From: a virus
Virus record (IMG/VR): IMGVR_UViG_3300034375_013346
Coordinates: 32,001 to 96,000 of that record
DNA: 64,000 bases
Reading direction: 5' to 3' (one strand)
Shown: in pieces, positions 1 to 62,715 of the stretch
How positions within the stretch are numbered: position 1 is the stretch's first letter
How the letters are laid out: each line of letters starts with the position of its first letter
Translations under genes and position numbers: made by a program
Notes under the pieces: generated by a model
Told to the model about the DNA's origin: nothing
The model's database searches: none
The model's input: the letters and a program-made list of their open reading frames with translations, nothing else

Positions 1-767
1 TTATATAATGTCAGTTCCCTCCCGGACTTTCCCCAATATTTCTGGAAGAATTCTTCCTCGTCTCTATATAGGACGGAATCTTCACCTCCCGAGCATGCTA
101 CAGCCTCTATTATTTCCTCAAAGAACATGTTTCGAAACGTACCAAACCATGAAATACTATCTTTTTCCCACCGTGATGAAAACATCTCATTTTGCTGGAA
201 TATCTCAGTTCGGTATATCGAAAACCCCCCACTTATAAATCCCTCATTTTTTCTCATAAGTAGGAGAGAATCCTTACCCTCTGAAACCATATCTTCTATC
301 TGATCCTTGATTATATCTCCAAAATCCACCAGGGGCTGGGAATAATCATATTCGAGGTATATTGTCCATTCGTAGTTATTACGAGAAGCCAAATTAATTC
401 CATTTTTTATTAAGCTTAAAGCAGATCTTTGGTGTGGTGCGTGTCTGGCCATGAATGAACTAAACAGACCTAGATTAGGAACGGAATACCAGTTAGACCA
501 CCTCTGAGAAATCCCTTCAGGTTTGAATAAGGGACAGCAATTTATAAGCTCGTAATCGTTAACAAAGGTGTTATTCGAATCAAAAATAAGATAATCACAG
601 GCCTCGGCAATTTTGTCCAGCCCATAATTGCAATGTGTAACGAAACAGACGTTAATTCCGCTTCTCTTTAGCGACAGTAGCATATCCATAGTATGTGATA
701 GTTTTTCCATGCTATCCTGGTGAGCTCCCACTATAACTAAGGAATCGTCGATATACTTATTTTCCAT
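1..767 (-). CDS. Putative glycosyltransferase-like protein, runs off the left window edge (absent from ORF track)
   Basis: Manual translation from ATG at 767: MENKYIDDSLVIVGAHQDSMEKLSHT...VCFVTHC...YLIFDSNN...IYLEYD, open to position 1; overlaps the GNAT stop by 11 nt; EYD resembles a GT-A DxD-like motif. Confidence 0.55.
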   Translation of the reverse strand, partial: MENKYIDDSLVIVGAHQDSMEKLSHTMDMLLSLKRSGINVCFVTHCNYGLDKIAEACDYLIFDSNNTFVNDYELINCCPLFKPEGISQRWSNWYSVPNLGLFSSFMARHAPHQRSALSLIKNGINLASRNNYEWTIYLEYDYSQPLVDFGDIIKDQIEDMVSEGKDSLLLMRKNEGFISGGFSIYRTEIFQQNEMFSSRWEKDSISWFGTFRNMFFEEIIEAVACSGGEDSVLYRDEEEFFQKYWGKSGRELTLY

Positions 768-1332
768 CCTTGGGTACATAAGAAATGTTACATAGACCTG
801 ACATATCAACCACCCGGCTAAGACTAACCCAATCTTCCCTCAGGATTCCCAGGAATATGCTATCCAGGTATTGCCCGCATTTATGGATACATCTCCTTTT
901 GATTCCCTCCTTTACAAAACCAACCCAAAGGGCACTCTTTAGACTAGCTATATTATTCTCTAAGACCTCAGTATCAATCCTATTCATATTTAAAACCTCG
1001 AAGCCAAAGTCTATCCCAGCTTCTAGTACAGGTTTGGAATAACCTTGTCCCCTATGATCCGATATCACATCATGGGCAGAATCATACCTTCTATTAACCC
1101 AATCTATATTTTGTATCTTATATAAACCAACCATATCTCCGGACTGGTTCAGAGCTTTAAGAATTAGTGATTTGGAGCTATCTAGAGATGAAAACCACCT
1201 TTCCTGGTCCATCGAATTAACAAAGGATATATTGTGGGTTCCAAACCATGACTCATTCTTGAGATCCTTAAGAATCGGAAGATCCTCACTCTCTATTTTT
1301 AATAGAGTTATCCCATTCTTGTGTTTATACAT
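757..1332 (-). CDS. GNAT N-acetyltransferase (RimJ/RimL, PseH-like)
   Basis: HRGQGYS acetyl-CoA motif, EVLENNIAS...GFVKEG; directly downstream of a sugar aminotransferase; ATG at 1332 preferred. Confidence 0.85.
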   Translation of the reverse strand: MYKHKNGITLLKIESEDLPILKDLKNESWFGTHNISFVNSMDQERWFSSLDSSKSLILKALNQSGDMVGLYKIQNIDWVNRRYDSAHDVISDHRGQGYSKPVLEAGIDFGFEVLNMNRIDTEVLENNIASLKSALWVGFVKEGIKRRCIHKCGQYLDSIFLGILREDWVSLSRVVDMSGLCNISYVPKDGK

Positions 1333-1352
1333 AGTAATTAAAGAAATTATCT

Positions 1353-2540
1353 CTACCATCCCTTCTTAATGCAATCCGCAATATACTCTCTTTGTTCATT
1401 AGTCACCCACCAACCTACTGGGATTGAAACAACATTACCTATAGTCTTATCCAGGGTTGGTAGAAAAGATCTATATTCTGCAACGCAGGTATGCTTATCG
1501 TTTCTCTCATGGACTTGAGATACCGAAATTCCACATTCATCCATCCATCTATAGAACCCATCCCTATTATCCACGAGCATTGAATAGATCCAGAAGGAGG
1601 AATCAAAACCTTCATCCCTCCTTAGGAGATTCACACCGTCTGCATCAGAAAGCTCCGAGTCGTAGAAAGAAGCATTCGATCTATGAGAATTAACTATATC
1701 ATCCGCATGTTTTAGATTTTCTATGCCCACGGTTGCACAGACGTCGTTCATGTGAAATTTATATCCCCATTCCTCTATATTCGCCTCACATCTAAAATCC
1801 TTGCGATCTCCGTCCCTATCTATTCCATACCACCTGATTAGTCTACCTCTGTTGTGCAATTCTTTATGTGGAGAGATAAGTAATCCCCCGTCAACTGAGG
1901 TTACATGCTTTATAGCCTGAAGGGAGAACATAGTTAGATTTCCGTGGGATCCTATTAATTTTCCTTTATACCTCGACCCAAATGAATGAGCCCCGTCCTC
2001 AATAACCGCTGGTTTGAAACCCAGTTTAAGGTAAGATTTTTCCTGTATACTTCTGATCTTATCGAGGTCATTCGGATATCCTCCCCAATGGACCAGCATG
2101 ATAACCTTTGTTTTATGCGTTATCTTCCTTGCAAGATCGTCTAGATCCATGTTGAGTGTTTCAGGATCTATGTCTACCCATTTTATTTTCAGCCCATTTG
2201 CTAAGATAGGCCAGTTTGAAGCGGTACACGTCAGAGGGGTTGCTAAAACCTCATCACCTGGCTGAAGCCCAGGCCATATAGAATCCGCAGCAATTGCCCC
2301 GTGATATATCTGTGTAATCTTGGTTGGTTTTTTCAATAGGTGAAGAGCTAGGTGTAAAGCTGAGGTTCCCGAGTTTACTGTCGAGATATAGTCTTGATTA
2401 AAGTACTTTCTCAGATCAGACTCAAATTGATCGACTTTTGCACCCTGTCCTATGTAGCCACTATTTAAAACCTCAGCAACCTTATCTCCAGCTTGGGGTG
2501 ACATGAAAACTTTAAAAAGAGGAATATTTTCTTTGCTCAT
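1353..2540 (-). CDS. DegT/DnrJ/EryC1/StrS PLP-dependent sugar aminotransferase
   Basis: NSGTSALHLA, IEDGAHSFG, FSLQAIKHVTSVDGG (PLP lysine), GYKFHM. Confidence 0.92.
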   Translation of the reverse strand: MSKENIPLFKVFMSPQAGDKVAEVLNSGYIGQGAKVDQFESDLRKYFNQDYISTVNSGTSALHLALHLLKKPTKITQIYHGAIAADSIWPGLQPGDEVLATPLTCTASNWPILANGLKIKWVDIDPETLNMDLDDLARKITHKTKVIMLVHWGGYPNDLDKIRSIQEKSYLKLGFKPAVIEDGAHSFGSRYKGKLIGSHGNLTMFSLQAIKHVTSVDGGLLISPHKELHNRGRLIRWYGIDRDGDRKDFRCEANIEEWGYKFHMNDVCATVGIENLKHADDIVNSHRSNASFYDSELSDADGVNLLRRDEGFDSSFWIYSMLVDNRDGFYRWMDECGISVSQVHERNDKHTCVAEYRSFLPTLDKTIGNVVSIPVGWWVTNEQREYIADCIKKGW

Positions 2541-2587: not shown

Positions 2588-2599
2588 GTATGTTAACAC

Positions 2600-2626
2600 A
2601 AAAAACCCCGGCCCGATGGGCCAGGG
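2600..2626 (-). terminator. Rho-independent terminator
   Basis: CCCTGGCCC-ATC-GGGCCGGGG followed by T6 on the minus strand. Confidence 0.85.
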
Positions 2627-2642
2627 ATTAATGATAAAAAAC

Positions 2643-2759
2643 GGGATCGTGGTTCGTGTTTTACTTCCCGTCGGAAGAGGGGTTATCTTTTTTTATTGAT
2701 GGTATTATCCCAAAATTCCATCTCTCTGTTTTAACGGTAAAGTTTGCTGAACCGATCCC
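2643..2759 (-). ncRNA. Candidate structured RNA 2 (Y RNA-like end-paired architecture)
   Basis: 5' GGGATCG-GTTC pairs with 3' GAAC-CA-CGATCCC; CAGCAAACTTT at the 5' stem junction; internal hairpins GATGG/CCATC and CTTCC-GACG-GGAAG; lies before a terminator, downstream of a TROVE-like gene. Confidence 0.55.
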
Positions 2760-2764
2760 TTTAC

Positions 2765-2826
2765 CAGGCTTCATTTTTTTCAGTAATCATAATCGTAGTT
2801 GAAAAAAGTTTGCTGTAAGAAGCCTA
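2765..2826 (-). ncRNA. Candidate structured RNA 1 (Y RNA-like end-paired architecture)
   Basis: 5' AGGCTTC pairs with 3' GAAGCCT; then TTACAGCAAAC internal loop and a second stem TTTTTTCA/TGAAAAAA; shares CAGCAAACTTT with element 2. Confidence 0.55.
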
Positions 2827-2837
2827 TTTTTTATACG

Positions 2838-3101
2838 TCAAAGTACTCTTTTGTTCCTTAATTCTTCTCGTAATGAATCAACCATTTGAACAGTCATGAA
2901 ATCCTTATTTTGCCAAATGTCCAATATTAGCTTGGCTATTTCCTCTTCCCTATAGGAGGTGGTAATAAAAGCTTTCTCTCCCGAGGTGTACCCTTCTCTG
3001 ATGGATATCAGAGAGATCTCTTCTCTTTCTCTGTCGCTGCATTCTGACCAAAATTCCTCAGGATCAAAATCTACTTCTCTTTCTATTATAAAGCTAGGCA
3101 T
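2838..3101 (-). CDS. Hypothetical acidic protein
   Basis: 87 aa ORF starting 2 nt after the TROVE-like stop. Confidence 0.7.
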   Translation of the reverse strand: MPSFIIEREVDFDPEEFWSECSDREREEISLISIREGYTSGEKAFITTSYREEEIAKLILDIWQNKDFMTVQMVDSLREELRNKRVL

Positions 3102-3102
3102 A

Positions 3103-4551
3103 TTATATCTTAATTTGTTTATATCTCTCAGAATCGATGGTTTGATCCATAATTTTTTCTGGTGTCATCCCATCACAATTGAGGATACTCCTCATGATTG
3201 CTGGGGAAAATCCAGAAACCAAAGCTGTACCAGCCTCGTCAAAGCTAACTGGTATGTTTTTTCCACTGGCATTAAGGTTCCAATACACTATGGATGGAGC
3301 CTCATATCCTGCTTCTTCATAGGATTTTTTAATCATCTCCTGTGCAGTAGGGTTCCAAATATTCTTTCCCTGCTCTCCCCAACCGAATACCTCTTCCCTT
3401 TTGTATACAGCTTGATCAAACTCCATGTCGGATAAAATTAGAAGTGTTGATGGCATCTCCTCATCAGGAACTGAATTTTTTACCGCCTGGTTGAGTATCA
3501 ATTCAAATACCGCCTGGAGATCGGTGTTCATTCCCCAATCCGAGCGGCTCAATTGTCTAAATCTATCATTGAGGTCTCCGCTTAAAACCTGGAGATCAGG
3601 ATTAGCAGAAAAAGTTATGAAAGAGTCCTTAAAACTTCCTTCATTCCTCTCGGAGATATAAAGACCCAAAGAAATTGCCACGTCCATGCAGGTAAGATTC
3701 TTATTATTACCAGCGCTACATTGCATAGATCCAGAGACGTCTACCACGGGCAGAATCATTCCGTTTGCACCCTCCATATAATTAGGCAAGGATTTCCACT
3801 GCTGATTAGCAACTTCGGAATCTCCAAATCCCAGAGATTTAGTTATATCGTAAGGATATACGGCACCTGCGTTTATTTTTGCGGTCCCGTTTTTAAGAGC
3901 CTCCCTATATTTAGCATATTGCTCGGGTGCATTTTTAGTAAATGCTTTCTGATATCTAGCAGAGGCCAAAGAGGGGAGTTTACTAAAGTCAATGGAATCC
4001 CAATCGCCCGAGCACATCTTACTTTCAACTACGTCCGTAAGAGAAACCAACAGCTTTCTGTATTCCTTGGGAGAGAGCTTCATAAAATTTCTAAGCTTCG
4101 CAGCTACTTTACCCTTTCGTGGCATCCATTTAGCACAAAGCCCGTCCTTGTTATCCAATGCTTCGGTGATTAGACTGAAAGCATCTTTTTCAACTCTGGT
4201 CCCCTCGAAAACTAGCACATCGTCCCACCTTCCGTAGAAAGGTATAAGTGAAAGATTACTCTTAACGATTAGATCTTGGTGTTCAGCAAGGTATATGATA
4301 ATATCCCTGAATATCTGTCTCTCTCCTGCTCCACCTCTCACATCCCTCGCCCAGAAAAGGATCTTCATTGCCCTTTCCGGATCCTCGTTGTATGCAAGGG
4401 AAAACTTCTGGATTAAGACTTCTTTCTCCGACCCCCTCATAGCTCCGATGTTAAAAAATAGATCAACACAGAAGCTAAGGGATGAAGAGTTAGTTGCCAT
4501 ACCGTTTTCGGTAATCGAATCTTTCGTTCTCAAGGCGTTTACTAGTTTCAT
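3103..4551 (-). CDS. DUF2828 / TROVE (Ro60)-like protein with C-terminal vWA domain
   Basis: TENG...DLFF, ARDVRGGAGER, YGRWDD, LCAKWMPR; vWA MIDAS DVSGSM, T in WGMNTD, ILSDMEFD, YWNL, SGFS; ATG at 4551 preferred. Confidence 0.85.
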   Translation of the reverse strand: MKLVNALRTKDSITENGMATNSSSLSFCVDLFFNIGAMRGSEKEVLIQKFSLAYNEDPERAMKILFWARDVRGGAGERQIFRDIIIYLAEHQDLIVKSNLSLIPFYGRWDDVLVFEGTRVEKDAFSLITEALDNKDGLCAKWMPRKGKVAAKLRNFMKLSPKEYRKLLVSLTDVVESKMCSGDWDSIDFSKLPSLASARYQKAFTKNAPEQYAKYREALKNGTAKINAGAVYPYDITKSLGFGDSEVANQQWKSLPNYMEGANGMILPVVDVSGSMQCSAGNNKNLTCMDVAISLGLYISERNEGSFKDSFITFSANPDLQVLSGDLNDRFRQLSRSDWGMNTDLQAVFELILNQAVKNSVPDEEMPSTLLILSDMEFDQAVYKREEVFGWGEQGKNIWNPTAQEMIKKSYEEAGYEAPSIVYWNLNASGKNIPVSFDEAGTALVSGFSPAIMRSILNCDGMTPEKIMDQTIDSERYKQIKI

Positions 4552-4573
4552 AGCTTCCGTTTTAATCAATTCC

Positions 4574-4600
4574 TTATATGGAAAAAATATCTTTTGTTTC
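4574..4600 (-). promoter_or_regulatory. Putative GAAAC-N17-TATAA promoter (class B)
   Basis: Exact GAAAC-17 nt-TATAA upstream of the TROVE-like gene. Confidence 0.45.
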
Positions 4601-4658: not shown

Positions 4659-5330
4659 TTATTTTCTAGTTGAGATGACCTCATCTATAATTCCATATTC
4701 TACCGCCTCCTGTGAATCTAGCCAAAAATCACGAGTCGCATCATTCTTTACTTGTTCCGGATCTTTATCGCAATATGAGCCCAGAAGATCAAATAGGATC
4801 TTATTATACTTATCCCATTCAACGAAATCGATTTTAGCGTCTTGTATATTACCACTAAAACCCCCGGAAGATTGATGAAGCATTACCTTCGAGAATCTGA
4901 GAGAATATCTTTTCCCCTTGGTCCCAGCTCCAAGCAGCACAGATCCCATGGAAGCTGCCATACCGGTATTAACCGTGATTATGTCGGATTTAATATAATC
5001 CATAACGTCCACCATCGAAAGGCCAGACTTTACAGATCCCCCTGGTGAATCTATATGCATAGTTATGTCCTTCTTGTCAACCGAATCTAGGAACATTAAC
5101 TGAGCCTGAACGATAGTCGACATTTTATCGTTGACCACCCCGGAGACCCAAAGGAGTCTATCCATCATCAGTCGGGAAAATATATCCATCTGGGTAGCTC
5201 TCAATTCCCTTTCCTCCAATATATATGGGGTAAGAGAGGATTCGACCATATTTTCGTAATACATCATATTCAATGAGCTGATTCCATGTTCGCTCATTGC
5301 ATATTTACCGAATTCATCTTTTATGTTCAT
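4659..5330 (-). CDS. clpP: ATP-dependent Clp protease proteolytic subunit
   Basis: MDIFSRL, IDSPGGSV, GMAASMG (catalytic Ser), MLHQ, RDFWL. Confidence 0.95.
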   Translation of the reverse strand: MNIKDEFGKYAMSEHGISSLNMMYYENMVESSLTPYILEERELRATQMDIFSRLMMDRLLWVSGVVNDKMSTIVQAQLMFLDSVDKKDITMHIDSPGGSVKSGLSMVDVMDYIKSDIITVNTGMAASMGSVLLGAGTKGKRYSLRFSKVMLHQSSGGFSGNIQDAKIDFVEWDKYNKILFDLLGSYCDKDPEQVKNDATRDFWLDSQEAVEYGIIDEVISTRK

Positions 5331-7228: not shown

Positions 7229-8707
7229 TCAATTACTCTGATCAAATTCTATACCTCCGTGCCTTTCCCCTTTTGTCTTAAGTGGGGAGTAATCATCGAT
7301 AGGATCGGATATCACAAAAGCCTTATGTGGATTGACCATAACACCCAATCTCTTCATAAGTTTTCGGTTAATAAGCAAAGGGGTGGATTTGGATACCCTA
7401 TCAGTTGGTGCTATTTTAACACCTGGTATCTTAACACCATTAAAAATTAGATCAACCTCTATTATTGGTCTCTCTACCGTTTCTCTTCCAATTTCTGTGT
7501 TTGTATATCCTACTATTTTATTTTCTAACTCAACATCACCGATCTTCCATTTTAGTTGGTCTCCATCTATATTAAGCTCATCCGCATGTATAGAGCTAGC
7601 GGTGGAACCATTACCAGTATCAAATTTAGCTACAAATTTTCCTATTTGAGGGATTTCCACCGTTTCTAGATATCCCACCTCCATCTTGGTGTAAGACCAA
7701 TTGTTCTTGTTGGATATAAAATCGATCACATCACCCACAATAGGTTTTCCTATAGCCTCTGATATACCCTCTGTTCCCGGGGAGGAATTAACCTCCAGAA
7801 CATAGGGATTCCCGGTTTTTGAATCTATCATAATATCAACACCACACCAATGACAAGCTACAGCATTAGCAGATTCGCAAGCTATCTTTTCGATCTCCTC
7901 TGTGATTTCATACGAGGAAACGCTTCCTCCTAGTGAATAGTTAGTTCTGAAATCCTTCTCAACTGCCTCTCTTTTCATAGCACCCAGAATTTCAAAATTA
8001 TCCTTGCCAGGATTAAGAGGGTCAAACTTCTTAGTAATGACTTGAACCCTAATATCGAAGTTGGAATCTATTTTTTCCTGGAGTAGGATCTCACCATCCG
8101 GATCGAGCTTCCTTATTGTCTGATATACAGATTTAAGAGAAGCATAGGAATCAACTACGGATACTCCGATTCCCTGAGTACCCGCTAACAGCTTCATTAC
8201 TATCGGAAATTCCCCACCAACTTCTTCGAGCGATCTATCAAGTGTATCTTCTCCACTTACTAAAGAATACCTAGGAACGGGAATTCCTGAATCGTCAAGT
8301 ACCTGTGAAGTTGTGTATTTGCTTTCGCAGATCTCTATAGACTCGAGGGAGTTCAGACAAAAGTATCTGGAGTCTTCCAGATCCGACATGATCCTCTTAG
8401 TATGCGAGTTGGTTATGACTCCTCTTCTCGGAACTATGGCTGTAGTTTCCGGGCGTATTAGTATCTCTATGGTTTCATCCCCTTTTTCTTCTCTAAGTAA
8501 ATGTCCGTTATAAACCTTCTCGAGTACGCAGTTATTGACATTGACTGCCTTACATTCTATTCCTCTGTTCGAACACTCACTAATGAAAGATTCAGCTGTT
8601 TTACTGGGCGAGGATTGACCACTTAAAATTATTATATCTATTGACCCTCTATCCTCTGCTTCGTTTAAGAAAGAGCTATAATTAAGAGCTGGGGATATTT
8701 TTCCCAT
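7229..8707 (-). CDS. RimK-family ATP-grasp ligase fused to C-terminal RimK-associated aspartyl-type protease
   Basis: K in IVMKLLAGTQGIGV, QEKI, DIRV, FRTNYSLGG, GVD, EVNSSPG; protease KFDTGN...ERP...LINR; N-terminal LNYSSFLNE. Confidence 0.88.
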   Translation of the reverse strand: MGKISPALNYSSFLNEAEDRGSIDIIILSGQSSPSKTAESFISECSNRGIECKAVNVNNCVLEKVYNGHLLREEKGDETIEILIRPETTAIVPRRGVITNSHTKRIMSDLEDSRYFCLNSLESIEICESKYTTSQVLDDSGIPVPRYSLVSGEDTLDRSLEEVGGEFPIVMKLLAGTQGIGVSVVDSYASLKSVYQTIRKLDPDGEILLQEKIDSNFDIRVQVITKKFDPLNPGKDNFEILGAMKREAVEKDFRTNYSLGGSVSSYEITEEIEKIACESANAVACHWCGVDIMIDSKTGNPYVLEVNSSPGTEGISEAIGKPIVGDVIDFISNKNNWSYTKMEVGYLETVEIPQIGKFVAKFDTGNGSTASSIHADELNIDGDQLKWKIGDVELENKIVGYTNTEIGRETVERPIIEVDLIFNGVKIPGVKIAPTDRVSKSTPLLINRKLMKRLGVMVNPHKAFVISDPIDDYSPLKTKGERHGGIEFDQSN

Positions 8708-9194: not shown

Positions 9195-10340
9195 TTAAAA
9201 AAGAGTGTTTATCATAAATAAATTAGGGCTTATCGGGTTGTAACCCATTACCTCTATAAATCTGTTAATCGGATCAAGGATAGTTTTAGTAAACTGCTCA
9301 TCAAAATCTATAGGTGGAGCAAATTCATGTGGGAATGTACCCTGAGCATATGCAAAAACGTTATTTTCCATTACGTTCTTCCTCTTTACAAAATAAAATC
9401 TAACCTTTTCCCCGCCCCCGATCAAGGGATATTTATCCTTGAACTTCGTTGAATTCAGAAGGTAATTGTGATATGCTGATGCTCTAACATGTATAGGACA
9501 ACCCTTGGCTACCTCCAGATTGGTTGTGTCGTTTAATACAAACTTCTCGTAGTTATTAACCATGATAGCAGCGGATATATTTTCGGGCTCTTGAGCCTTA
9601 AAGTCTCTCTTGATCTTCTTGAGCTCCTGAACAAATTCTCGGAGCTCGAATTTATTACCCTTGCTAAAAATAAATTTGGTTAAGTATATGAGCTTCTCCC
9701 TTACGAATGATGGGGTTCCGCCTTTCACCATCTCAACCCCAGTAGTTTTGATGGATGTTAAAGGCTCGGAATGTACACCTTCGGAATAAACGATATTGGT
9801 AACATATTTTTTCTTACCCAGGAATATCCCGTTGATGGAGAGAGTCTCCATCTCAAAATCCTGATAATTATCAGTTCCCCATTTTTCTGCGTAGATATCA
9901 AAGCACTTCTTGAGATATCCGACTAATCGATTCTCATTTATTGCTAATATCAAATCCTTTTCACTTCCTTCCCATCCTTCACAAGAGGCTACGACTTCCT
10001 GAAAGGTTACATAGTTGGAGTCAGTATCACCATAAACGACCATCGGCTTGTGTATCTTCTTAACCGATGTTAGTCCCAGCTTATCATGCAATTCCTTGTC
10101 CTTATGCCAAAACTCATGAAAATACTTATCGAGAATCTTCTCGGAGTGCTTAATCAAGCTTTGTCCTTGTAGGGTAACAGCTTCAGCTACTTCGGGATTA
10201 AAACAGGCAAACCAGCTATTCCCTATTGCACCATAAATGGAATTCATGGTAAGTTTTACAGCTTGCTCCTCGTTCTTAAGCTCATTCTTAAGAGCCGTAA
10301 GAACCTCAATTTTTTCCTTTAATTCTTCCCTCTCAGACAT
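9195..10340 (-). CDS. Family B DNA polymerase, C-terminal subunit (fingers helix, palm, thumb)
   Basis: Motif B KLTMNSIYG, motif C YGDTDS, KKKY, GVE; no exonuclease domain or motif A. Confidence 0.92.
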   Translation of the reverse strand: MSEREELKEKIEVLTALKNELKNEEQAVKLTMNSIYGAIGNSWFACFNPEVAEAVTLQGQSLIKHSEKILDKYFHEFWHKDKELHDKLGLTSVKKIHKPMVVYGDTDSNYVTFQEVVASCEGWEGSEKDLILAINENRLVGYLKKCFDIYAEKWGTDNYQDFEMETLSINGIFLGKKKYVTNIVYSEGVHSEPLTSIKTTGVEMVKGGTPSFVREKLIYLTKFIFSKGNKFELREFVQELKKIKRDFKAQEPENISAAIMVNNYEKFVLNDTTNLEVAKGCPIHVRASAYHNYLLNSTKFKDKYPLIGGGEKVRFYFVKRKNVMENNVFAYAQGTFPHEFAPPIDFDEQFTKTILDPINRFIEVMGYNPISPNLFMINTLF

Positions 10341-16987: not shown

Positions 16988-17919
16988 ATAATTTCCTCGA
17001 TATTAGAGTGGTAATGAAGAAGTGCTTTGTCCTTCATTTTAACCTCCAATTCTATATCGAAGTTATGTCCATAAGTTTCGATCTTTTCGTGGATCCAATC
17101 AGAGTGAGCTAAATCTTTTGCTGAGTTGTCTTCAAATAAAGCACGGGATTCCGAAAAATGAGTTAAAGGGGTTACGTCATTAGGCCAGGTTGATAGACAC
17201 ACTAATAGTGATTCCTCCTCAGAAAGACCCTCCGGAGGATTACACCGATTATGCAAGTAATCAAATGTAACCGGAATTCCTATCGAGTCATGTATCATTT
17301 CTTTGAGATCCAAAGAGGTATACTGAGATCCCTTATCATCAATTTCCACGACCAACCTTTTCTTTACCGAATCGGGGAGTAGCATAAAGTTCTTACAGAA
17401 TCTAGATGCAGCTTCCTCTTTAGTTGGCTTGGTAGTATTGACGTGTATATTTATGGGATAGTGGAGATTTTGATCCAGACCCATTAAATCCATAATTTCT
17501 CCATGCTGCCTTAATTCCTTCAAAGCATTATGGACAACATCTTCCCGGAGAGAAGCAAGAACACCGTAGGGAGATGGATGGAATGTTATTCTCTGATCTC
17601 CGCTAATTGCTAGACCCCCAGCACGTTTAAGATGGGTCTTTATCTCCTCGAAGTCAGGTAGATCGGATAGCTCATATTCAGAACACCAAGGAAAAATATC
17701 GGAGCTCATCCGGTACATCTTTATTCCCATCTGATTGTTCCACTCAATTATGGTGCAGAGATCTTTCACATTGAGCAGAGATAACTCAGAGACATACTCA
17801 ATACCCCTTTCAAGAAATGTTTTCTTGGTCATAGATCTGTTAGTAGTCACTCGATCTTTCTTTTTTCTGCCCTCAGAAATACTCAGGTTAATGCAGCAAT
17901 ATCCATATCTTCTATCCAT
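16966..17919 (-). CDS. uvsE: UV damage endonuclease
   Basis: GYCCIN, YRMSSDIFP, TFHP, INIH, VEIDDK, FDYLH, HFSE, AHSD, EVKMKD. Confidence 0.92.
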   Translation of the reverse strand: MDRRYGYCCINLSISEGRKKKDRVTTNRSMTKKTFLERGIEYVSELSLLNVKDLCTIIEWNNQMGIKMYRMSSDIFPWCSEYELSDLPDFEEIKTHLKRAGGLAISGDQRITFHPSPYGVLASLREDVVHNALKELRQHGEIMDLMGLDQNLHYPINIHVNTTKPTKEEAASRFCKNFMLLPDSVKKRLVVEIDDKGSQYTSLDLKEMIHDSIGIPVTFDYLHNRCNPPEGLSEEESLLVCLSTWPNDVTPLTHFSESRALFEDNSAKDLAHSDWIHEKIETYGHNFDIELEVKMKDKALLHYHSNIEEIICQETTN

Positions 17920-17957
17920 AAACCAAAATTACAATTACCAGCCGTTCTAAAAAAATA

Positions 17958-25178: not shown

Positions 25179-27674
25179 TTACGATCCACAGGATATACAG
25201 TCATCCGGATTATCTAGACTACATGATATATCAGACATTGCCTGATTTGCTAGCTCCTTTAACTCCTCACTAGCAGATTCAGAGTGATTAGAATTCTTTT
25301 CATCATTGGGAACATTGACAGTTTCCTCAACCTTAACTACACTGGGAGACTTGGTTTTATACTTACTTGAATCTATACCGAGACCGGATAAGGCATCCAC
25401 TGCTGCCTTAGTTCTCAAATAGTACATACCAGTTTTAAGACCCATCTTCCAGGAATGGAAATGAGCTGCAGTTAACTTGGCTGCATTCACGCCCTCTATG
25501 AAAAGATTAAGGGACTGAGACTGGCATATAAATTTACCTCTCTCAGCAGACATTTCAATAAGATCCTTCTGCTTTATCTCCCAGACAGTTTTATAGATCT
25601 CCTTAATATCGTCGGGTATATTGGGTATATTCTGAATTGACCCCTTATGGATGATAATCATATTCTTCATATCATCATCCCATAGATTGAGTGAAATTAG
25701 ATCATTCACGAGATGCTTATTAATCACAATAAATTCCCCACTCAAAGTTCTTCGAGTATAAATGTTTGAAGTGAAAGGCTCGAAAGCTTCATTATTCCCC
25801 ATAATCTGAGCGGTAGAAGCAGTTGGCATTGGGGCTAAAAGCAATGAATTTCTTGCCCCATGCTTCATAACTTCCTTCCTAAGCTTTTTCCAGTCCCACC
25901 TACCAGATAATTCCTCGTCGGTGAAATTCCATAGATTGAATTGGAATTTGCCCTGGCTCAGAGGAGATCCATCAAAGGTCTCATATGCTCCAAGTTTTTT
26001 GGCTAAAGAAACTGAGGCGGACATAGAAGCAAAATATATCGTTTCAAATATATCTGAGTTTATTTTCCTAGCCTCATCCGATGAGAATGGTATTCCCATA
26101 ATAGCATAAAGATCAGCCAGACCCTGTATTCCTATCCCTATGGGTCTATGCCTCATGTTGGATTTTCTAGTTTCTGGAGTAGGATAAAAATTAACATCTA
26201 TAACCTTATTAAGATTAATAGCGGTTTGATAGGCCACCTCATACAGAAGATCGTGATCGACTTCACACTTTCCTCTCAGTATTTTGGAGGTTCTAGCATC
26301 AGTAGATTTCAAGAAGTTATTTACCGCTATCGAAGCAAGATTACAAACTGCTTGTTCATCTTTATCAGTATACTCGATTATCTCGGTACACAGATTAGAA
26401 GATTTTATAGTACCGAGGTTTTGCTGATTTGATTTCCTATTTGCAGCATCTTTATATAGGATATATGGTGTACCAGTCTCTATCTGGGATTCTATTATTT
26501 TTCCCCATAGTTCGCGAGCTCTAACTTTTTTCCTGACTTTCCCTTCTCTCTCAGCAGCTATGTATTTCTTATTGAATTCTTCTCCATAAACCTCGTGTAA
26601 ACCAGGAACTTCAGAAGGAGATATTAATGACCAGTCCTCATCCTTTTCTACTCTCTCCATAAACAGGTCCGGAACCCAGAGAGCCAAAAATAAATCTCTT
26701 GCTCTCCTCTCCTCCTTACCCGTATTTTTTCTTAGCTCTAGAAAATCCTCCACATCTGCGTGCCATGGTTCAAGGTAAATGGCGAAAGATCCCTTTCTCT
26801 TTCCACCACCCTGATCAACATATCTGGCGGTCTCGTTATAGACCTTCAACATCGGAACAATCCCATTCGACTTACCATTTGTTCCTCGTATATAGGAACC
26901 AGTAGATCTCACATTATGTATGGCTAGTCCAATACCTCCCGCATTTTGAGAGATCAAAGCAACATCGGATAGGGTCTTATAGATACCCGGAATTGAATCA
27001 TCACTCATCGTGAGAAGAAAGCAGGACGATAATTGGGGTTTTCTAGTACCCGCATTAAATAGGGTAGGAGTAGCGTGAGTCATCATATGAGTTGACAAAA
27101 GCTCATACGTCTTAATGGCATTCTTTATGTCGCTTCCCCATATTCCTACCGCAACCCTCATGTACATGTGCTGAGGGGTTTCTGAAGGATTCCCATGCAT
27201 TTTTAGAAGATAACTCTTCTCCAATGTTTTGAAACCAAAATACTCAAAATTGAAATCACGATCATGTATAATCGAGGAATCCAACTTGTTCTTATTTTTT
27301 CTAACAACCTCGTACGTCTCATCACTGATAAGACCTGCAGGCTTGTCCGTTTCCGGATCGATATAGGAATATAGGTCCTCTATGGTATCCGAGAATTTCT
27401 TCTTAGTTGTTTTATGTAACCTCGAGACCGCTATTCTTGAAGCCAGAATTGAGTGGTCCGGGTGAATGGGTATAAGTGAAGCAGCGGTTTCGGCTGCTAA
27501 ATTGTCAAGTTCACCTGTGGTGATACCGTCATAAATTCCGGCGATCACCTTTTGTGATATACCCATTGAATCCACAAAATCTGTGTTCAATCCATAAGTC
27601 ATTTTCCTCACGCGGTTAGATATTTTATCAAATCTTACCGCTTCGCTAGATCCGTCTCTCTTAGTTACGTACAT
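25179..27674 (-). CDS. nrdA: Ribonucleotide reductase class Ia alpha subunit
   Basis: ATP cone [25 protein letters not shown]-terminal CISCGS. Confidence 0.97.
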
Positions 27675-29273: not shown

Positions 29274-30686
29274 CTACCCCATTTTTTTTAATTGTTTCTC
29301 CATCTGATCAATTTCAATCTGGAGTTTTAACATTCGATCTTTAGTTGCTTTACGCTTGGCATAAAGATCTTTAATTATTGTCTTAAGTATTGGATTTTCC
29401 GAGTCACCTCCAAAAACGGCCTTAGATGAAGTTCTCACCCATCCTTCCTTAACTTCGGATAAGTTTATTCCCTCCTTTCCTTTATAAACCTCAGGGGATA
29501 TTCCCCATTGAACAATCGTATTAGGATACAGAGAGGCAAAGTCGTAACAAGCCACCCATTCATGTAGACCTTTGATGGGCTCTTTCACATATCCACCTAT
29601 AAATTTAACGTGGCTTTCCTCTTTCCTCTCGTTAACAAAAACCTGTCCCCTCTCTAAGAATTTGCGGAGCATCAGCACTTCCGTTGACCAAACAGGAGAA
29701 AGAGCCCTACTTATCTCAACGCCATTTAAATTGGCAATTTTGAGATAAGTAAGCATTGTTTGAAGCTTTACGTCTATATAGTGAACAAGAGCGCAGTCAA
29801 TAACATTATACAGTATAAATTTTGGAAAATCGGACTGATACAGGTCCCTTAGGGATCCATTATAGACTATCTTTTTAAGTCCCGTGGCCTTTTCCGCTAC
29901 GTAATCAAGTCTATTACTTTCTTTAATTTTTATTACTCGGTCCCACTTCCGGTATATCTCCAGATAATCGACCATGAGCAAGTGCATGGGGAGGTTGTTC
30001 TTTCCAATGAGCCAATTGGAAGGAGATATTATCTTAGGATCTATGCCCAACCTCTTAGCTCTGTTAACCAAATACGGCCAGTCATATCCAAACCAGTTCC
30101 ATCCAGTAATCAGGGACATTTTGGGTGCTAGGTTCTTGAAGAAAGTATAAAGCATATCATATTCACTCTCGAATTTATGATACTTAAAACTCCACTCATC
30201 GCCCATTGGAGACAGATACTCGTTAGTCCTTCTATGGATATCGGCTTGCTCTTCAGGGGTAAGTGGGTCTAGACCAAGCATAATCGCCTTACATCGGTCA
30301 GTGGCTATACCTATTGAAAGAACCTTATTCTTTGCCGATGCTGTATCGAGTGAATCCCTCATCTCGTCGGTCATCTCTACCTCTATATCGACAAAATATT
30401 TTTTGGGAGTCTGGAATTCAAAAAGGGGCTTAGTTAACTCCGGATCAGCCTCTTCCAAGATCTGTATCATCCGATACTTGTCATATTTCTGGGTTTTTGC
30501 TTTTCTAACTGGGAACCCGTCCCAGCTCTCCCATTCCTTCTCCCTTCTACTATCTGATGGTGAGCATTTTTCCCATATGAATCTCTCCTTATCAGGGACC
30601 GGAACATTAATAAATATTAAATCACCGTCCTCAGAAAAACTTGATACCTTCAAGTAGGTTCCTTTATTCTCAATATCAACTATCAT
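29274..30686 (-). CDS. Family B DNA polymerase, N-terminal subunit (3'-5' exonuclease and motif A)
   Basis: Exo I VDIEVE, Exo II GWNWFGYD, Exo III YNVID, GGYV, DFASLYP; ends in fingers helix LYAKRKATK; ATG at 30686 preferred. Confidence 0.92.
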   Translation of the reverse strand: MIVDIENKGTYLKVSSFSEDGDLIFINVPVPDKERFIWEKCSPSDSRREKEWESWDGFPVRKAKTQKYDKYRMIQILEEADPELTKPLFEFQTPKKYFVDIEVEMTDEMRDSLDTASAKNKVLSIGIATDRCKAIMLGLDPLTPEEQADIHRRTNEYLSPMGDEWSFKYHKFESEYDMLYTFFKNLAPKMSLITGWNWFGYDWPYLVNRAKRLGIDPKIISPSNWLIGKNNLPMHLLMVDYLEIYRKWDRVIKIKESNRLDYVAEKATGLKKIVYNGSLRDLYQSDFPKFILYNVIDCALVHYIDVKLQTMLTYLKIANLNGVEISRALSPVWSTEVLMLRKFLERGQVFVNERKEESHVKFIGGYVKEPIKGLHEWVACYDFASLYPNTIVQWGISPEVYKGKEGINLSEVKEGWVRTSSKAVFGGDSENPILKTIIKDLYAKRKATKDRMLKLQIEIDQMEKQLKKMG

Positions 30687-30744
30687 CAAATATTTAGATT
30701 TATTATATCCTAACCAGATCAGGTTGGAGGATATATAGAAGTAT

Positions 30745-31068
30745 ATGAAAGCTAACATCAAAAGTTTCGAAGATTTCTTATTAGAATATTACGTTTCGGA
30801 AGCTCCAGGTAGCGTTGTAGTACCGGGTGAATGGTACAAGGACAGCGTTAATTCCAGGAACTACCGCCCAGCATATACTCAAATGCCCCAAGTAGTGGAC
30901 TCAATGTTCCAAACAACCGACCTATACAACTATCTGGATACCCTTTCCGAGGAGGAAGAGTTTAATAGGATAGTCAAAGAGAATAACGGAGAACCGAAGA
31001 AAATAATTAAATATCTTAAGAGACGAATAAACGAGGAGCTTCTACCTCAGCAGAAGGGGGAAAAATAA
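30745..31068 (+). CDS. Hypothetical protein with CTS-like N-terminus
   Basis: MKANIKSFEDFLLE; GATATATA at 30730-30737. Confidence 0.75.
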   Translation: MKANIKSFEDFLLEYYVSEAPGSVVVPGEWYKDSVNSRNYRPAYTQMPQVVDSMFQTTDLYNYLDTLSEEEEFNRIVKENNGEPKKIIKYLKRRINEELLPQQKGEK

Positions 31069-36300: not shown

Positions 36301-38214
36301 TCATACATCCTTTATCAGATCGTTATAAAGGTTGGAAATCTCTCTCGGGACTAGCTTTTTAAATTTAGAAAAATCCCTATCTGCTAGGGTTTGTCTAACC
36401 TTAGTCCCTGATGTTCCTCTAGGAGTCTCCTCTAAAGAAAAGCCCGGACCTAGTTTGTCCTTTATATCGGATACCTTTATGTAATCGAGCTGCTTTGAAT
36501 AATCGTCAATTCTATCCTCCCCAGCACCAATCAATTGAGGATCATATCCCATAGAGATAAGTTTTGCAATTCCAGATCCCAAAAGTCCTCTGGTAATCAT
36601 CTCATATCCAGCGATCTCCTCGTTATTCTGAACAACGGAATCCATATATCTTTTAACCGTGGCAGGGTCGAATGGAGATTTGCCAGATTTATTATGTCCT
36701 GGATGAACCACCAAAAGATAAGAAGGGCTACCGTTCTTATCCATCATATATCTAGCCATCTTTAGATGTCCCGAATGGAATGGCTGGAATCTCCCCATAA
36801 TAACATTGATCTTTCTCGACACATCCTCATTATCCTCTCTCACCTCAGAAATTCCCACCTCCTTAGGTGAACTAGTATCGATAGTTTCCAAGGCACTTAT
36901 AAATTCATCATAAGAATGGAAGTGGTCCTCGTCACTATCGGATAAATCGTCTTCCTCCTTTAAATAATTAACCGGTGCTATAAACTCCTTTCTAAACTCA
37001 TTAAAAGAGAAAAATTGAGACTCGTTAACCTTCTTTTTTGGTTTTTTGATGTGTTCCTTTATCTGATTGATGAGAGAATTGAGTTGATCCTTCATCCCTG
37101 GGGTAATGATACCTCCTGCTCTGGTCTTAATTTTTCTGAATGAATTGAGCATTAGCTTAAATAGGGCTTCAAAAGAATCATCCTTCTTAACCAGCTTAAG
37201 AACCCTGCTATCTTTAATCATATCAAGATTCAATCTAAATTCATCTCTTTTAAGATAATCTGGTTCCTCAAAATCAGTACCACTATATTTCTTAGAATAC
37301 AGATCCAAAAACCTCACAAAGACCTCGGACATGAATGAAATATACCTCTCATCGTCAGTTTCACCCTCAACCTCAAATGAATCTATACCCTCCTCGAGAA
37401 TAAAATTCATCACATCCATGATAGTGATTCCCAAAAAATCGCTAGGTTTCTTCGATCTCCTCTCCTGGGCTTTCTGCTTAGCCAGTTCAGTAAAAACCGG
37501 ATCCACCATCTTGGCTAGTACAGTGTCATTTTCCTTATCAGGTTCTCCAAATCTAAAAACTATTCCCTCAACATCCTTATCAAGATCATCATTCAGAGCT
37601 GTCTTAGTAAGACCTGGATTTAGAGTCTTTATTATAAATCGGACAAAACTATTTGTACGGAATTTCTCGACCAACTCCTTGAACGGGGTTTCCATGAATT
37701 CCATCAGTTCCGACTTTTGCTCTTCGTCAAGTCTTCCCTGGAATATAATCGGAGGTTTTTCAACACCCAGGAGATCCGCCCAATTGTTTAATTCGTCCTT
37801 ATCTTGTACGGTTTTCTTGATTTTACCCCCGTCACCCATCTGGTGTACGTAGGAAAGTATCAGATTGTTCTTTGGTATACGATCATACACAATTTCCACT
37901 GGGGATTTATTGGCAAAGTATTCAAGACCAAATCTCCATCCTCTTGGTATTCTCTCTAGGATATGGGGAGGGAGGGACTCTATGTATTGTATAGGCTTCT
38001 CATAATACTTCATGAGGGTCCTATCCACTAAGGTTATTGGATTTCTCTGGTCCCTTCTATAAAACCTGAACTTCCCGCTTTCCCTATCCCTTTCGAAAGA
38101 AAATGCAGACCCGTCCATCTTCTCGTTAATAGTCACAAACTGGTTGAAGAGTTGATTTATAAAATCAGATCCCTTCTTATTGTACATGTCATATAGATGA
38201 TTAATCCCTGCCAT
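36301..38214 (-). CDS. Fusion: ATP-dependent RNA-ligase-like domain plus HIGH-family (cytidylyl/NMN-adenylyl) nucleotidyltransferase
   Basis: Ligase motifs EKMDGS, LEYF, PIIFQG, EGIVFR, AKMV; C-terminal GRFQPFHSGH, GEDR, SGTKVR. Confidence 0.75.
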   Translation of the reverse strand: MAGINHLYDMYNKKGSDFINQLFNQFVTINEKMDGSAFSFERDRESGKFRFYRRDQRNPITLVDRTLMKYYEKPIQYIESLPPHILERIPRGWRFGLEYFANKSPVEIVYDRIPKNNLILSYVHQMGDGGKIKKTVQDKDELNNWADLLGVEKPPIIFQGRLDEEQKSELMEFMETPFKELVEKFRTNSFVRFIIKTLNPGLTKTALNDDLDKDVEGIVFRFGEPDKENDTVLAKMVDPVFTELAKQKAQERRSKKPSDFLGITIMDVMNFILEEGIDSFEVEGETDDERYISFMSEVFVRFLDLYSKKYSGTDFEEPDYLKRDEFRLNLDMIKDSRVLKLVKKDDSFEALFKLMLNSFRKIKTRAGGIITPGMKDQLNSLINQIKEHIKKPKKKVNESQFFSFNEFRKEFIAPVNYLKEEDDLSDSDEDHFHSYDEFISALETIDTSSPKEVGISEVREDNEDVSRKINVIMGRFQPFHSGHLKMARYMMDKNGSPSYLLVVHPGHNKSGKSPFDPATVKRYMDSVVQNNEEIAGYEMITRGLLGSGIAKLISMGYDPQLIGAGEDRIDDYSKQLDYIKVSDIKDKLGPGFSLEETPRGTSGTKVRQTLADRDFSKFKKLVPREISNLYNDLIKDV

Positions 38215-50370: not shown

Positions 50371-52827
50371 TTAGCTTCTTCCGCCCGGATCTGGATCGAT
50401 AATCACATCCTTTGGGTTAGGCAGTGAAGACCCGTTATCACTCCCCGATTGATTCGCAGTACCCCCATTGGAACTAGCAGATCCACCAGTGGTTCTGCCT
50501 GCACCGGTGTTGCCATAAGCAAACACTAAGGACATATCTCCACTTCCGAATATACCCTGAACCGCCTGTATGAACAACTCTTTTGTAATTCCAACATAGA
50601 GCTTATACCCAGTAGAACTAGGATCCAGGAAGTAAGAAATTATCTCAGGCGTAGACCACCCAGTAGCTACCTTTCCTTGTACGTCGGAGGAGATGGCAGA
50701 TTTCAGCTGGGCTTGACTTAGTTTTTGCTGACTACTGTTGCTTCCACCCTTGCTAACCTTTCCATTACCACTCGTTCCCAAGTTTCCGCTCTGAATACCC
50801 GAGACCTGCCAGGAACTTTTTCCAGGCTTGTTCGGTGGAGCTTTAAATACAGGAGAAGTCGGGAGAACCTTAACGTCAGCTTCTACTTTGGCCTGTACCG
50901 GAATTTGCTCATCATCTTTTAACCAGTTTCCCCAGTATAGAGTAGAGAAAGAATTACCCCCTATTTTAGCTGTATTTACTGCTCTGCTAGTATTGGAGTC
51001 TTTCTTGGAAGCAAGTATAATATTTCTAGAAGAATCTCTTAGACTAACAGCTCTCTTTGCTAATAGGGACTTAGTTTTATTAACCTTTGAAATCCCCCGG
51101 GTATCAGTATTGTCCCCATCAGGATCTGGTGGTTTATTGGTGATATAGAACTTTCTGTTTGTAAACTGAAGTATCTGGTTAGATATGGACTCATCCACTT
51201 TAAAAGCTAATTCACCCTTAGAAGGTTTTGCTATATTGGCATCAGCAATAGAAGGGGCATATACCTTCTTATCCATATTATTTATGAATACCATATTGTA
51301 GGTACCAGAGGAGCTAAGATCTATCTCCTGTGTTGTACCATCTGGTCCCTTTCTAAAGAATGAAAACTTATAATAGTTATCAAAAGGACTGACCCTAATA
51401 TATGCCTTCCCTATCCCGTAAGAAATAGAAGGGGCACTCGAATTGCTTCTCTCCGTAATATTAGTTCCATTAACATCTAGATTAGTCAATGATGTATTCA
51501 CCAAATTTCTATCAACGAATACATTAGCAAACTTGGTAATTTCTCTAGGTGACATTTGATTAAAAGGAACGGATATATCTGTTTTTCCGGCTAGTTTATT
51601 GTATATCTTTTGCTGTTGCGGCAAAACTGAAAGTTGAAGCGGGGTAATTGTAGAACCATACTTACCCGGATCTGTCGATGTATATGTAGCTACCCTCATA
51701 ATTCTGGTCTGATCCTTGCTATTTATAAGGGTCATAGTATATCTCAATGAGAAGCTTGTAGCCACATTGGAATATCTAACTATTGGTCTAAAAAGATTCG
51801 GAACGTCATATGCAGATGTCTGGATGCTTGTAAAGTTAGAGGTTTCCAGCCAAGCAGCACCAACCTGCTCAAGAACCTCTATCCTATTTTCTATGTAATA
51901 GCTATTGCCTATTGAATTCTGAAACAGTATAAAATCCTCAATAAACCCGCCATCATCCGTACCAAAATATTCAAAGAAATCTCCGGTATCAGCTGGGGAG
52001 ATATAGGCACCTATGTTATTGAACGGATCAGTGGGTTCCAGAGATAATGCTGCCAAAAGCTGAGTCCCGTATGTTTCATATCCGCTAACTACGGAGGTAT
52101 CTGTGATCGAATATGCATTTACCCTTAGAGGTTGGGCAGCTAAAAATCCTCTTCCGCTCTTAGAGGTTTTAGCAGCAAGCGTGAGAGGCTTGTTTGATGG
52201 ACTAGCTGCGTTATACTTATTGATCATATCTGAGAGAGAAGGTATCTTCACCTCAAAATACTTATCATATATGTTAGCCCCTATGGTTAAAGGATTAGGG
52301 TTTAGTGTGTATTGCTGTGAATTACCCTTCGAAAGCTTTATCTGGGAAAAAGTCACATAAGAACCATCAACATCCGGGTACTTGACATTAAGGATTAGTC
52401 CGTCCAGATTGTCCAGGTTATATCCGGCGAGTATATGATATCTCACGGAGTCATAAACAACATTAAGATTTGATGAGAACGATATAGGTAGGTTTGCCGT
52501 ATCAGTCAGCTCAGATTTAAAATCATTGTAAGGTACTATCAGGTTCGGATTAAGGGTTACGAAGGTGGTAAGATTGGTCTGTACAACGCTATTATTAGAG
52601 GTATTCTGTGTTATTGATGCATTTTCATCCAGATTAAAAATCTGAACATCATTAGAAACCTGTCCATCGGAGTCCTTGAGAATCCCATTCACAAGTCTAT
52701 TATAACCCACTGTAGGACTACCGACATTGACAAAGTAATCCTCAGGATTTGGAGGACTTGCATACATATACTCCATAACCAGATATGGAGAGAGTTGTAC
52801 GTATTTAGATGTCGTTGTAAAAGCCAT
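50371..52827 (-). CDS. Putative structural (baseplate/tail) protein
   Basis: 818 aa S/T/N-rich beta protein in the structural block. Confidence 0.6.
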   Translation of the reverse strand: MAFTTTSKYVQLSPYLVMEYMYASPPNPEDYFVNVGSPTVGYNRLVNGILKDSDGQVSNDVQIFNLDENASITQNTSNNSVVQTNLTTFVTLNPNLIVPYNDFKSELTDTANLPISFSSNLNVVYDSVRYHILAGYNLDNLDGLILNVKYPDVDGSYVTFSQIKLSKGNSQQYTLNPNPLTIGANIYDKYFEVKIPSLSDMINKYNAASPSNKPLTLAAKTSKSGRGFLAAQPLRVNAYSITDTSVVSGYETYGTQLLAALSLEPTDPFNNIGAYISPADTGDFFEYFGTDDGGFIEDFILFQNSIGNSYYIENRIEVLEQVGAAWLETSNFTSIQTSAYDVPNLFRPIVRYSNVATSFSLRYTMTLINSKDQTRIMRVATYTSTDPGKYGSTITPLQLSVLPQQQKIYNKLAGKTDISVPFNQMSPREITKFANVFVDRNLVNTSLTNLDVNGTNITERSNSSAPSISYGIGKAYIRVSPFDNYYKFSFFRKGPDGTTQEIDLSSSGTYNMVFINNMDKKVYAPSIADANIAKPSKGELAFKVDESISNQILQFTNRKFYITNKPPDPDGDNTDTRGISKVNKTKSLLAKRAVSLRDSSRNIILASKKDSNTSRAVNTAKIGGNSFSTLYWGNWLKDDEQIPVQAKVEADVKVLPTSPVFKAPPNKPGKSSWQVSGIQSGNLGTSGNGKVSKGGSNSSQQKLSQAQLKSAISSDVQGKVATGWSTPEIISYFLDPSSTGYKLYVGITKELFIQAVQGIFGSGDMSLVFAYGNTGAGRTTGGSASSNGGTANQSGSDNGSSLPNPKDVIIDPDPGGRS

Positions 52828-52839
52828 TCTATCTATTTA

Positions 52840-53863: not shown

Positions 53864-53894
53864 ATTTATCCAAAATTTAAAAACATTCGACAAT

Positions 53895-55583: not shown

Positions 55584-55601
55584 CAGATTTCTTTTTAGGT
55601 A

Positions 55602-57125: not shown

Positions 57126-57169
57126 GTTGAAATCTTATCTTTGTTTATATATTCCAAATTTAACTGTCA

Positions 57170-62695: not shown

Positions 62696-62715
62696 ATTTT
62701 TCCCTTTATCCTATC

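Follow-up and report, generated by a model that had tools for sequence, protein, structure and literature searches.

The closest described counterparts of the locus presented here are the particles that Ro60 forms with Y RNA or YrlA. They share with it, as far as can be predicted, a protein built of a helical-repeat ring plus a vWA domain and small RNAs with paired ends, encoded within a few kb of the protein gene on the gene strand. Ro60, an RNA-surveillance protein, binds Y RNA on its outer surface and the ends of misfolded RNA in its cavity. Such partner RNAs of bacteria and mycobacteriophages include YrlA and YrlB. The YrlA RNAs were defined by a tRNA-like domain and a GNCGAAN0-1G motif and were found only next to TROVE-annotated proteins, in a search that covered only genomes with such proteins (Chen et al. 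2014, PMC4201824). The Ro60 protein of Thermus phage phiLo binds two adjacent Y-like RNAs (Yrl1/Yrl2) via a CGAA motif, and Ro60, Y-like RNA, and the host PNPase form a ternary complex (PMC12135203). In phage Bas63, the Ro60-like protein gp130 is encoded before tRNA genes and counters the Ppl defence (10.1101/2024.10.10.617714). The locus studied here, from a large uncultured phage, lies in a 64-kb stretch, referred to as the window, of the virus record IMGVR_UViG_3300034375_013346 (IMG/VR, 114.6 kb, CheckV completeness 42%), and comprises a gene for a Ro60-like protein with DUF2828 and DUF7788 domains and two small RNA elements with paired ends, here called handle RNAs. With a probability that we put at roughly 75%, the product of the locus is a Ro60/Y RNA-type ribonucleoprotein made up of a divergent DUF2828+DUF7788 ring protein and two dedicated small RNAs. 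The handle RNAs and the ring protein most likely represent an undescribed branch of the Ro60/Y RNA particle, whose binding and function we infer.

Handle RNAs of the window and their family

The first RNA, element 1, has the 5' arm AGGCTTC (2825..2819) followed by TTA and CAGCAA (2815..2810), and the 3' arm GAAGCCT (2772..2766) followed by G (2765). The corresponding parts of element 2 are the 5' arm GGGATCG (2759..2753), GTT, CAGCAA (2749..2744), the 3' arm CGATCCC (2649..2643), and G (2642). Written as RNA, the two elements read AGGCUUC-UUA-CAGCAAACUUU...GAAGCCU-G and GGGAUCG-GUU-CAGCAAACUUU...CGAUCCC-G. Element 1 is composed of a 7-bp closing stem (AGGCUUC/GAAGCCU), UUACAGCAA unpaired after the 5' arm, an A/U-rich hairpin body, and the trailing G. 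Element 2 contains the stem GGGAUCG/CGAUCCC, GUUCAGCAA, a body of several hairpins, a 3' module consisting of a small hairpin (UUCCGACGGGAA), an A-run, and ACGAA (2657..2653), then the 3' arm and the trailing G. The 11-mer CAGCAAACTTT begins 3 nt past the 5' arm in both RNAs, and its only two sites in the 64 kb are those in the elements, against 0.01 expected. The coordinates, stems, common motif, gene order, and terminator given in an earlier note on this DNA proved exact to the base. Since ~8.8% of positions in this AT-rich DNA have a 7-bp closing stem by chance, little can be concluded from the stems alone, and both elements have modest fold z-scores (-1.9 and -2.4). Both figures would suit a pattern that is due to chance or reflects a repeat at the DNA level (for instance, the end of a mobile element or a recombination site) and not an RNA.

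For comparison, 80 IMG/VR loci (L-numbers) of window-protein relatives were used, which had been fetched by protein alone. In a first pass, the gene strand was scanned by a script for a stem arm, a spacer of 1-4 nt, CAGCAA, and, further on, the complementary arm. In the closest relatives, the elements obtained lay immediately downstream of the gene; in more distant loci, they lay immediately upstream of it. Over the 80 loci, a stem at the fixed offset accompanied 111 of the 240 CAGCAA sites on the gene strand (46%) versus 3 of 132 on the other strand (2%). The covariance model R1, trained on 20 short copies, gave 67 matches in these loci (E<=0.1), with a strand ratio of 67:0 for the gene strand; tandem copies numbered up to seven (L050/L051). 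Among 51 distinct copies, the closing stem was 97.8% paired versus 64% in shuffled and 29-50% in slid controls, and both-side changes occurred at six of the seven stem pairs, one G-C pair being invariant; the aligned copies were selected by or fitted to the stem, which favours it in these figures. The independent site counts (46% against 2% on the other strand and ~8.8% at random positions) nevertheless agree. In consensus form, the handle reads W-W-A-G-R-N4, N-U-W-C-A-G-C-A-A, body, N4-Y-C-U, G. The G at the second stem position is invariant in the 51 copies, the C, G, C, and A of the motif are present in 51/51, and 45/51 retain the U that lies two bases before CAGCAA. The stem of the family covaries while the motif is fixed.

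As judged from sequence comparison, the RNAs are a real family, which is characterized by a 7-bp stem starting with (A)G and ending with CU, an invariant G after it, and an unpaired N-U-W-C-A-G-C-A-A by the 5' arm; it is because of the comparative counts over the 80 related loci that the elements are considered real and not a product of chance. The proposal of the earlier note, that different stems around a conserved motif point to a structured RNA family, is borne out by the covariation, the strand bias, and the recurrence beside the gene in many phages. The check it had suggested, namely collecting the flanks of DUF2828 homologues and building a covariance model, was run and yielded a covarying, gene-linked family. 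Chance or a DNA-level repeat is disfavoured by these data and is a very improbable explanation: copies with different stem sequences keep the pairing, whereas a conserved DNA site would keep the sequence, the R1 matches keep to one strand, the 11-mer occurs far above expectation, and the pattern is kept from AT-rich marine phages to GC-rich mycobacteriophages.

In the window, R1 scored 47.4 bits on element 1, a copy of the training set, and 24.8 bits (E 0.004 over the whole window) on element 2, a copy from outside it. A third window match of R1 (17886-17939, E 2.8) was considered as a further copy and fits chance, and six other CAGCAA-plus-stem sites in the window fit chance likewise, with 4.1 expected. 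No further handle RNA copy was found in the 114.6-kb record. The 64-kb window contained no Rfam family at the gathering threshold and no tRNA gene anywhere according to ARAGORN; the window RNAs are therefore not YrlA, tRNA, or another catalogued family. In the region 2500-2950, no match to RF00019 (Y_RNA), RF02553 (YrlA), or tRNA was detected at E<=10. The earlier note had called the elements Y RNA-like, which holds for the paired ends and the linkage to the gene on the same strand but not for membership in the Rfam families Y_RNA and YrlA. The term probably describes a way of working and not a family membership.

Searches of whole records with R1 showed that handle RNAs are few and gene-linked (cka15, warpig, and KVP40). 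Listeria phage cka15 (OR088597.1, 137 kb) has three R1 matches, all in the 395-nt gap before the homologue, at 25,554-25,289 (minus strand), behind a consensus promoter. Felixounavirus warpig (86 kb) has one, in a tRNA array 340 nt past the gene, and the sole match in Vibrio phage KVP40 (NC_005083.2, 245 kb) is at 176,664-176,724 (-) with 45.1 bits. Phage A511 keeps the handle RNA layout by the gene. In the GC-rich mycobacteriophage Gabriela (MN703406.1), a terminator, three handle RNAs, and a second terminator directly follow the gene for a 'Ro-like RNA binding protein', and the first stem pair is U-A instead of A-U. Thus arranged, the handle adjoins the gene across Listeria, Felix O1-type, and mycobacteriophages, and from AT-rich marine to GC-rich genomes.

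The cka15 homologue, CKA15_055, is present in purified virions, and its gene lies no more than 2 kb downstream of three non-coding regions with very high transcription, which the authors guessed might be Y RNAs; the most transcribed region of this phage, annotated as CKA15_059-061, accounted for 7-34% of all reads and was left unexplained (PMC12282133). The top region, 26,236-26,727 (L088:2602-3153 (+), ~26,195-26,746), sits between tRNA-Pro and the Ro60-like gene and matches the ROOL RNA RF03087 over the full model with 90.1 bits (threshold 99.1) and an E value of 7.9e-18. The putative ROOL RNA match for the unexplained top transcript of cka15 is new here.

Bodies and transcription of the handle RNAs

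The body between the arms can be regarded as freely exchangeable. The 3' module of element 2 is common to the long RNAs of the relatives L001, L002, L004, and L017, and (C/U)ACGAA stands just before the 3' arm in element 2 and relatives, element 1 being devoid of it. Neither tRNA nor YrlA similarity was found in the long RNAs of the window's clade. In L050, a whole tRNA (2023-2093) is the body of a handle RNA. L050 (40 bits) and Gabriela (21.4 bits) have a permuted T-arm/D-arm core with a sub-threshold alignment to YrlA, and the T-arm, stem, and D-arm core of the middle handle RNA of Gabriela (L089:4483-4607 (+)) correspond to YrlA positions 30-81. With such a permuted core inside a handle RNA, a single molecule combines the handle family with a YrlA-type body. 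The handle itself, a short stem plus unpaired UWCAGCAA, differs from the Ro-binding helix of YrlA and Y RNA, and the CAGCAA motif is absent from the YrlA description (PMC4201824). The phiLo Yrls depend on their CGAA motif, and the long class of handle RNAs has a CGAA-containing stretch near the closing stem.

The handle RNAs likely form an independent small transcription unit, because the AGG start of near relatives is preceded, at 4-6 nt, by a TATA(T/A)A box that often lies just past the terminator hairpin of the upstream gene, all of these relatives have a terminator directly after the last RNA, and cka15 has TTGACA-17-TATCAT ~25 nt before the first handle RNA. For the window, this organization is proposed from the relatives; its own terminator has a fold z-score of -3.9. 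A sigma-70 scan of the window revealed no promoter between the 87-aa open reading frame (ORF) and element 1, and a single terminator follows element 2, so that co-transcription with the gene is possible. These two features, and the position of the elements just upstream of the gene in more distant loci, would be consistent with cis-acting structures of the untranslated regions (3' or 5') of the gene's own transcript, serving its stabilisation or autoregulation. Such a role is unlikely in view of the tandem arrays of up to seven copies, the copies inside tRNA arrays, some of which enclose whole tRNAs, the many relatives in which the first RNA has a TATA box and is preceded by a terminator, the consensus promoter of cka15, and the KVP40 copy remote from the gene.

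If the locus encodes a Ro60/Y RNA-type ribonucleoprotein, transcription of the RNAs would run from a TATA-type promoter to the terminator and give a short unit, or the RNAs would be cut from the transcript of the gene. The handle would attach to the ring protein in the way the Y RNA stem does to Ro60, and the variable body could serve as an adaptor or decoy through which the particle reaches host RNA enzymes or defences that target RNA in the course of infection. The roles proposed in the earlier note (RNA repair, decay, or decoy) would be conjectural; the nearest experimental hints are the activity of gp130, a homologue from a Felix O1-type phage, against Ppl and the binding of PNPase by phiLo Ro60.

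The Ro60-like protein and its gene neighbourhood

The Ro60-like ORF has 488 codons, and the ATG at 4551, which gives 482 aa, is the probable start since the database copy of the protein has this length. Pfam searches (E<=0.01) detected DUF7788 (E 7e-56), DUF2828 (E 1e-28), and nothing else; no sequence match to the TROVE domain was obtained at this level. PHROG 850 'RNA-binding protein' was matched at E 4e-156. In an alignment of 37 sequences, the DxSGSM MIDAS motif in the vWA domain (D271, S273, G274, S275, and M276) and the W-RD-R-G-GER and GRWDD motifs in the helical part were invariant. The AlphaFold model built from this alignment had a pLDDT of 80 and a pTM of 0.76. In the Foldseek comparison with the PDB, the best 12 structures were all Ro60 (E 1e-9 to 1e-5), aligned over the full length (520-588 aligned columns) at 12-18% identity, including those of phage phiLo (9kop/9l5y), Deinococcus Rsr (2nvo), Xenopus (1yvp/2i91), and human (9nen), and isolated vWA domains ranked after them. 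The family profile found the phiLo TROVE protein in the PDB at E 0.0035, across 43 residues around the MIDAS motif alone; a PDB search with the single protein sequence returned repeat-protein matches, which were judged spurious. From the model, the window protein is predicted to be a helical-repeat (HEAT-like) ring with a vWA domain, Ro60-like in fold. The Ro60 fold appears across the top 12 structures, yet Pfam TROVE is not matched; the protein is therefore assigned a Ro60-like fold and not TROVE membership.

Full-length relatives of the window protein were present in 711 phage records. The DUF2828 family as a whole contains >6,600 clusters at 50% identity and extends to fungi, amoebae, and Naegleria. 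The Felixounavirus homologue, with 42% identity to the window protein over the full length, is encoded directly before a tRNA array. The gp130 layout reported for Bas63 (Felixounavirus) matches the layout of its relatives read here, in which the tRNA array contains a handle RNA; in the preprint it was guessed that some annotated tRNAs may be Y RNAs, and handle RNAs were not described (10.1101/2024.10.10.617714).

Several points weigh against a ribonucleoprotein with dedicated RNAs. When supplied alone from a plasmid, gp130 rescued T7 on Ppl hosts (10.1101/2024.10.10.617714), so its anti-Ppl activity needs no phage RNAs. The handle RNA of KVP40 is 7 kb from the DUF2828 gene, though on the same strand, with no handle RNA adjoining that gene, and some of the 80 loci are without an R1 match; the linkage of gene and RNA is thus not absolute. 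No handle RNAs lie in the top-expressed region of cka15, where they were looked for and where the ROOL RNA match was found. The tRNA-like domain (T and D arms) that is expected of YrlA in at least one RNA per genome, and that shows below threshold in longer handle RNAs of relatives, is missing from the two RNAs of the window. The pairing figures for the 51 copies are biased towards the stem as stated, and the binding and expression of handle RNAs, in this phage or any other, are points that we infer.

The independence of gp130 from phage RNAs, and the presence of both gene and RNAs in tRNA arrays in distant relatives, would also fit RNAs that are real but unconnected with the DUF2828 protein (for example, tRNA-like decoys or processing cassettes of phage tRNA regions), the linkage being due to a shared home near tRNA genes. 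This explanation is considered improbable: the window has gene and RNAs side by side with no tRNA gene in 64 kb, the loci L001-L045 and Gabriela likewise keep them together, and most of the loci, fetched by protein alone, carry the RNA on the gene strand. A protein with its own handle RNAs is the reading retained here, and the features of the locus are listed in Table 1.

Table 1. Features of the Ro60-like locus in the 64-kb window.
Feature	Position	Strand	Basis
Ro60-like protein gene (DUF2828 + DUF7788)	3103..4569	-	Pfam, PHROG, AlphaFold, Foldseek
87-aa ORF between the protein gene and the RNAs	2838..3101	-	ORF reading
TATAAAAAAT box directly 5' of the first RNA, possible promoter of the RNA unit	2826..2835	-	By analogy with relatives
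Handle RNA 1 (element 1), short class, 61 nt	2765..2825	-	Paired ends, R1 model
Handle RNA 2 (element 2), long class, 118 nt	2642..2759	-	Paired ends, R1 model
Intrinsic terminator ending the RNA unit	2598..2626 (hairpin 2626..2606, then T-run)	-	9-bp stem, 8 G-C pairs
ClpP protease gene directly upstream of the Ro60-like gene	4659..5330	-	Pfam

The order on the minus strand is as follows: ClpP gene, Ro60-like gene, 87-aa ORF, TATAAAAAAT box, element 1, element 2, terminator, and DegT-type aminotransferase gene. The 87-aa ORF had no Pfam and no PHROG match, and a counterpart at the same position was present only in the two closest loci (L001, 36%, and L002, 31%; tblastn). It is read as an accessory gene of the window's sub-clade alone and not as a general part of the system. 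Sugar-modification genes (DegT-type aminotransferase and GNAT acetyltransferase, 757-2540 (-)) lie beside the locus, and a gene for a RimK-like ATP-grasp enzyme (7229-8707 (-)) is found in its neighbourhood.

The window includes phage replication genes for topoisomerase II, ribonucleotide reductase, helicase, and DNA polymerase, and it has no close DNA-level relative among cultured phages. Two ORFs 19 kb apart, 9195-10340 (-) and 29274-30761 (-), match family-B/phage DNA polymerase, which suggests a split or duplicated polymerase. In a 637-aa protein (36301-38214 (-)), an RNA ligase domain (PF09414, E 1e-6) occupies the N-terminal part, and the C-terminal part matches phage cytidylyltransferases; the protein may be an RNA-repair enzyme, encoded by the same phage as the Ro60-like system. 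The region 50371-63960 (-) contains five consecutive large ORFs (818, 562, 507, 1841, and 414 aa) without a Pfam match, and the two tested against PHROG (818 and 562 aa) had no match there.

Likeness to dictyostelid Class I RNAs and meaning for the DUF2828 family

The Class I RNAs of Dictyostelia are 42-65 nt long, start with AAG and end with CUGU, and have an invariant 5' G and a terminal stem of 6 bp that covaries; their 11-nt motif CCUUACAGCAA adjoins the 5' arm, with U3, C6, C9, A10, and A11 nearly invariant, and they were published as unique to Dictyostelia, with the mechanism unknown (Kjellin et al. 2021, PMC7919456). Each of these Class I characters has a counterpart in the phage handle. 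In element 1, the corresponding sequence beside the 5' arm is CUUACAGCAA. Class I and handle RNAs both end with CUG and have a covarying short stem, a G near the 5' end, and variable A/U-rich bodies; element 1 (61 nt) is inside the Class I size range and element 2 (118 nt) is outside it. The Rfam model RF01414 scored 26.4 bits on element 1 over the full length, below its 41.5-bit threshold, and 28.6, 26.9, 28.8, and 22.7 bits, also over the full length, on short handle RNAs of L071, L047, and L002. The per-record E values were 4e-5 to 2e-3, and nothing else in those records scored as well. All of these scores are under 41.5 bits and may be inflated by the common A/U richness, and the GC-rich Gabriela copy reached 18.9 bits. 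The two groups differ in setting and partner: the Class I RNAs come from eukaryotes and their genes have a DUSE promoter ~60 nt upstream, whereas the window belongs to a phage record, and Class I RNA is known to be bound directly by the RRM protein Rnp1A, whereas the partner proposed for the handle RNAs is the DUF2828 protein.

DUF2828 proteins resembling that of the window were found on the eukaryotic side as well. The protein DLAC_02580 of Tieghemostelium (Dictyostelium) lacteum (504 aa) has 34% identity to the window protein over the full length (E 9e-81), and a DUF2828+DUF7788 protein of the amoebozoan Cavostelium apophysatum has 33% identity over 97% of the phage protein; such proteins also occur in fungi, Naegleria gruberi, and a chytrid. 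No dictyostelid homologue besides that of T. lacteum was obtained in two word-based searches and one exhaustive HMMER search (20 named of the best 150), and a screen of the protein matches by amino-acid composition revealed no Dictyostelium-like one. With T. lacteum the one dictyostelid among the matches named, a general presence of the DUF2828 protein in Dictyostelia would be conjecture. In a pull-down with DdR-21, which is a Class I RNA, GuaB, NdkC, the RRM protein CIBP/Rnp1A, and DDB_G0281243 were recovered, the last being described as 'function unknown' with orthologues in all dictyostelids studied (10.1101/2020.04.05.026054). The literature searched mentions DDB_G0281243 in this one preprint only. 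This protein is a new lead for a possible partner of Class I RNA.

It is tentatively suggested, as a possibility that we consider doubtful, that the handle RNAs and the Class I RNAs form a single RNA family, either through descent or because both converged on the same protein surface, with a DUF2828 protein as the natural partner. The full-length homologue in T. lacteum and, as a lead, the presence of DDB_G0281243 in the DdR-21 pull-down speak for it; the single dictyostelid homologue, the RRM protein as the direct binder, and the sub-threshold Rfam scores count against it. Were it true, the Class I RNAs would gain their first outside relative and a candidate protein partner, and they would correspond to the Y RNAs in a second Ro-like particle, widespread and common to phages, bacteria, and protists.

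For the phages themselves, a ribonucleoprotein of the proposed kind would carry the design known from Ro60 and Y RNA, in which a ring protein is combined with a handle RNA whose adaptor can be exchanged, over to a second phage system that is much commoner. The counter-defence reported for Bas63 gp130 would gain a molecular starting point. A defined RNA partner would also make the function of the very large DUF2828 family testable in cultured phages, including A511/P100, Felix O1-type phages, KVP40, and mycobacteriophages.

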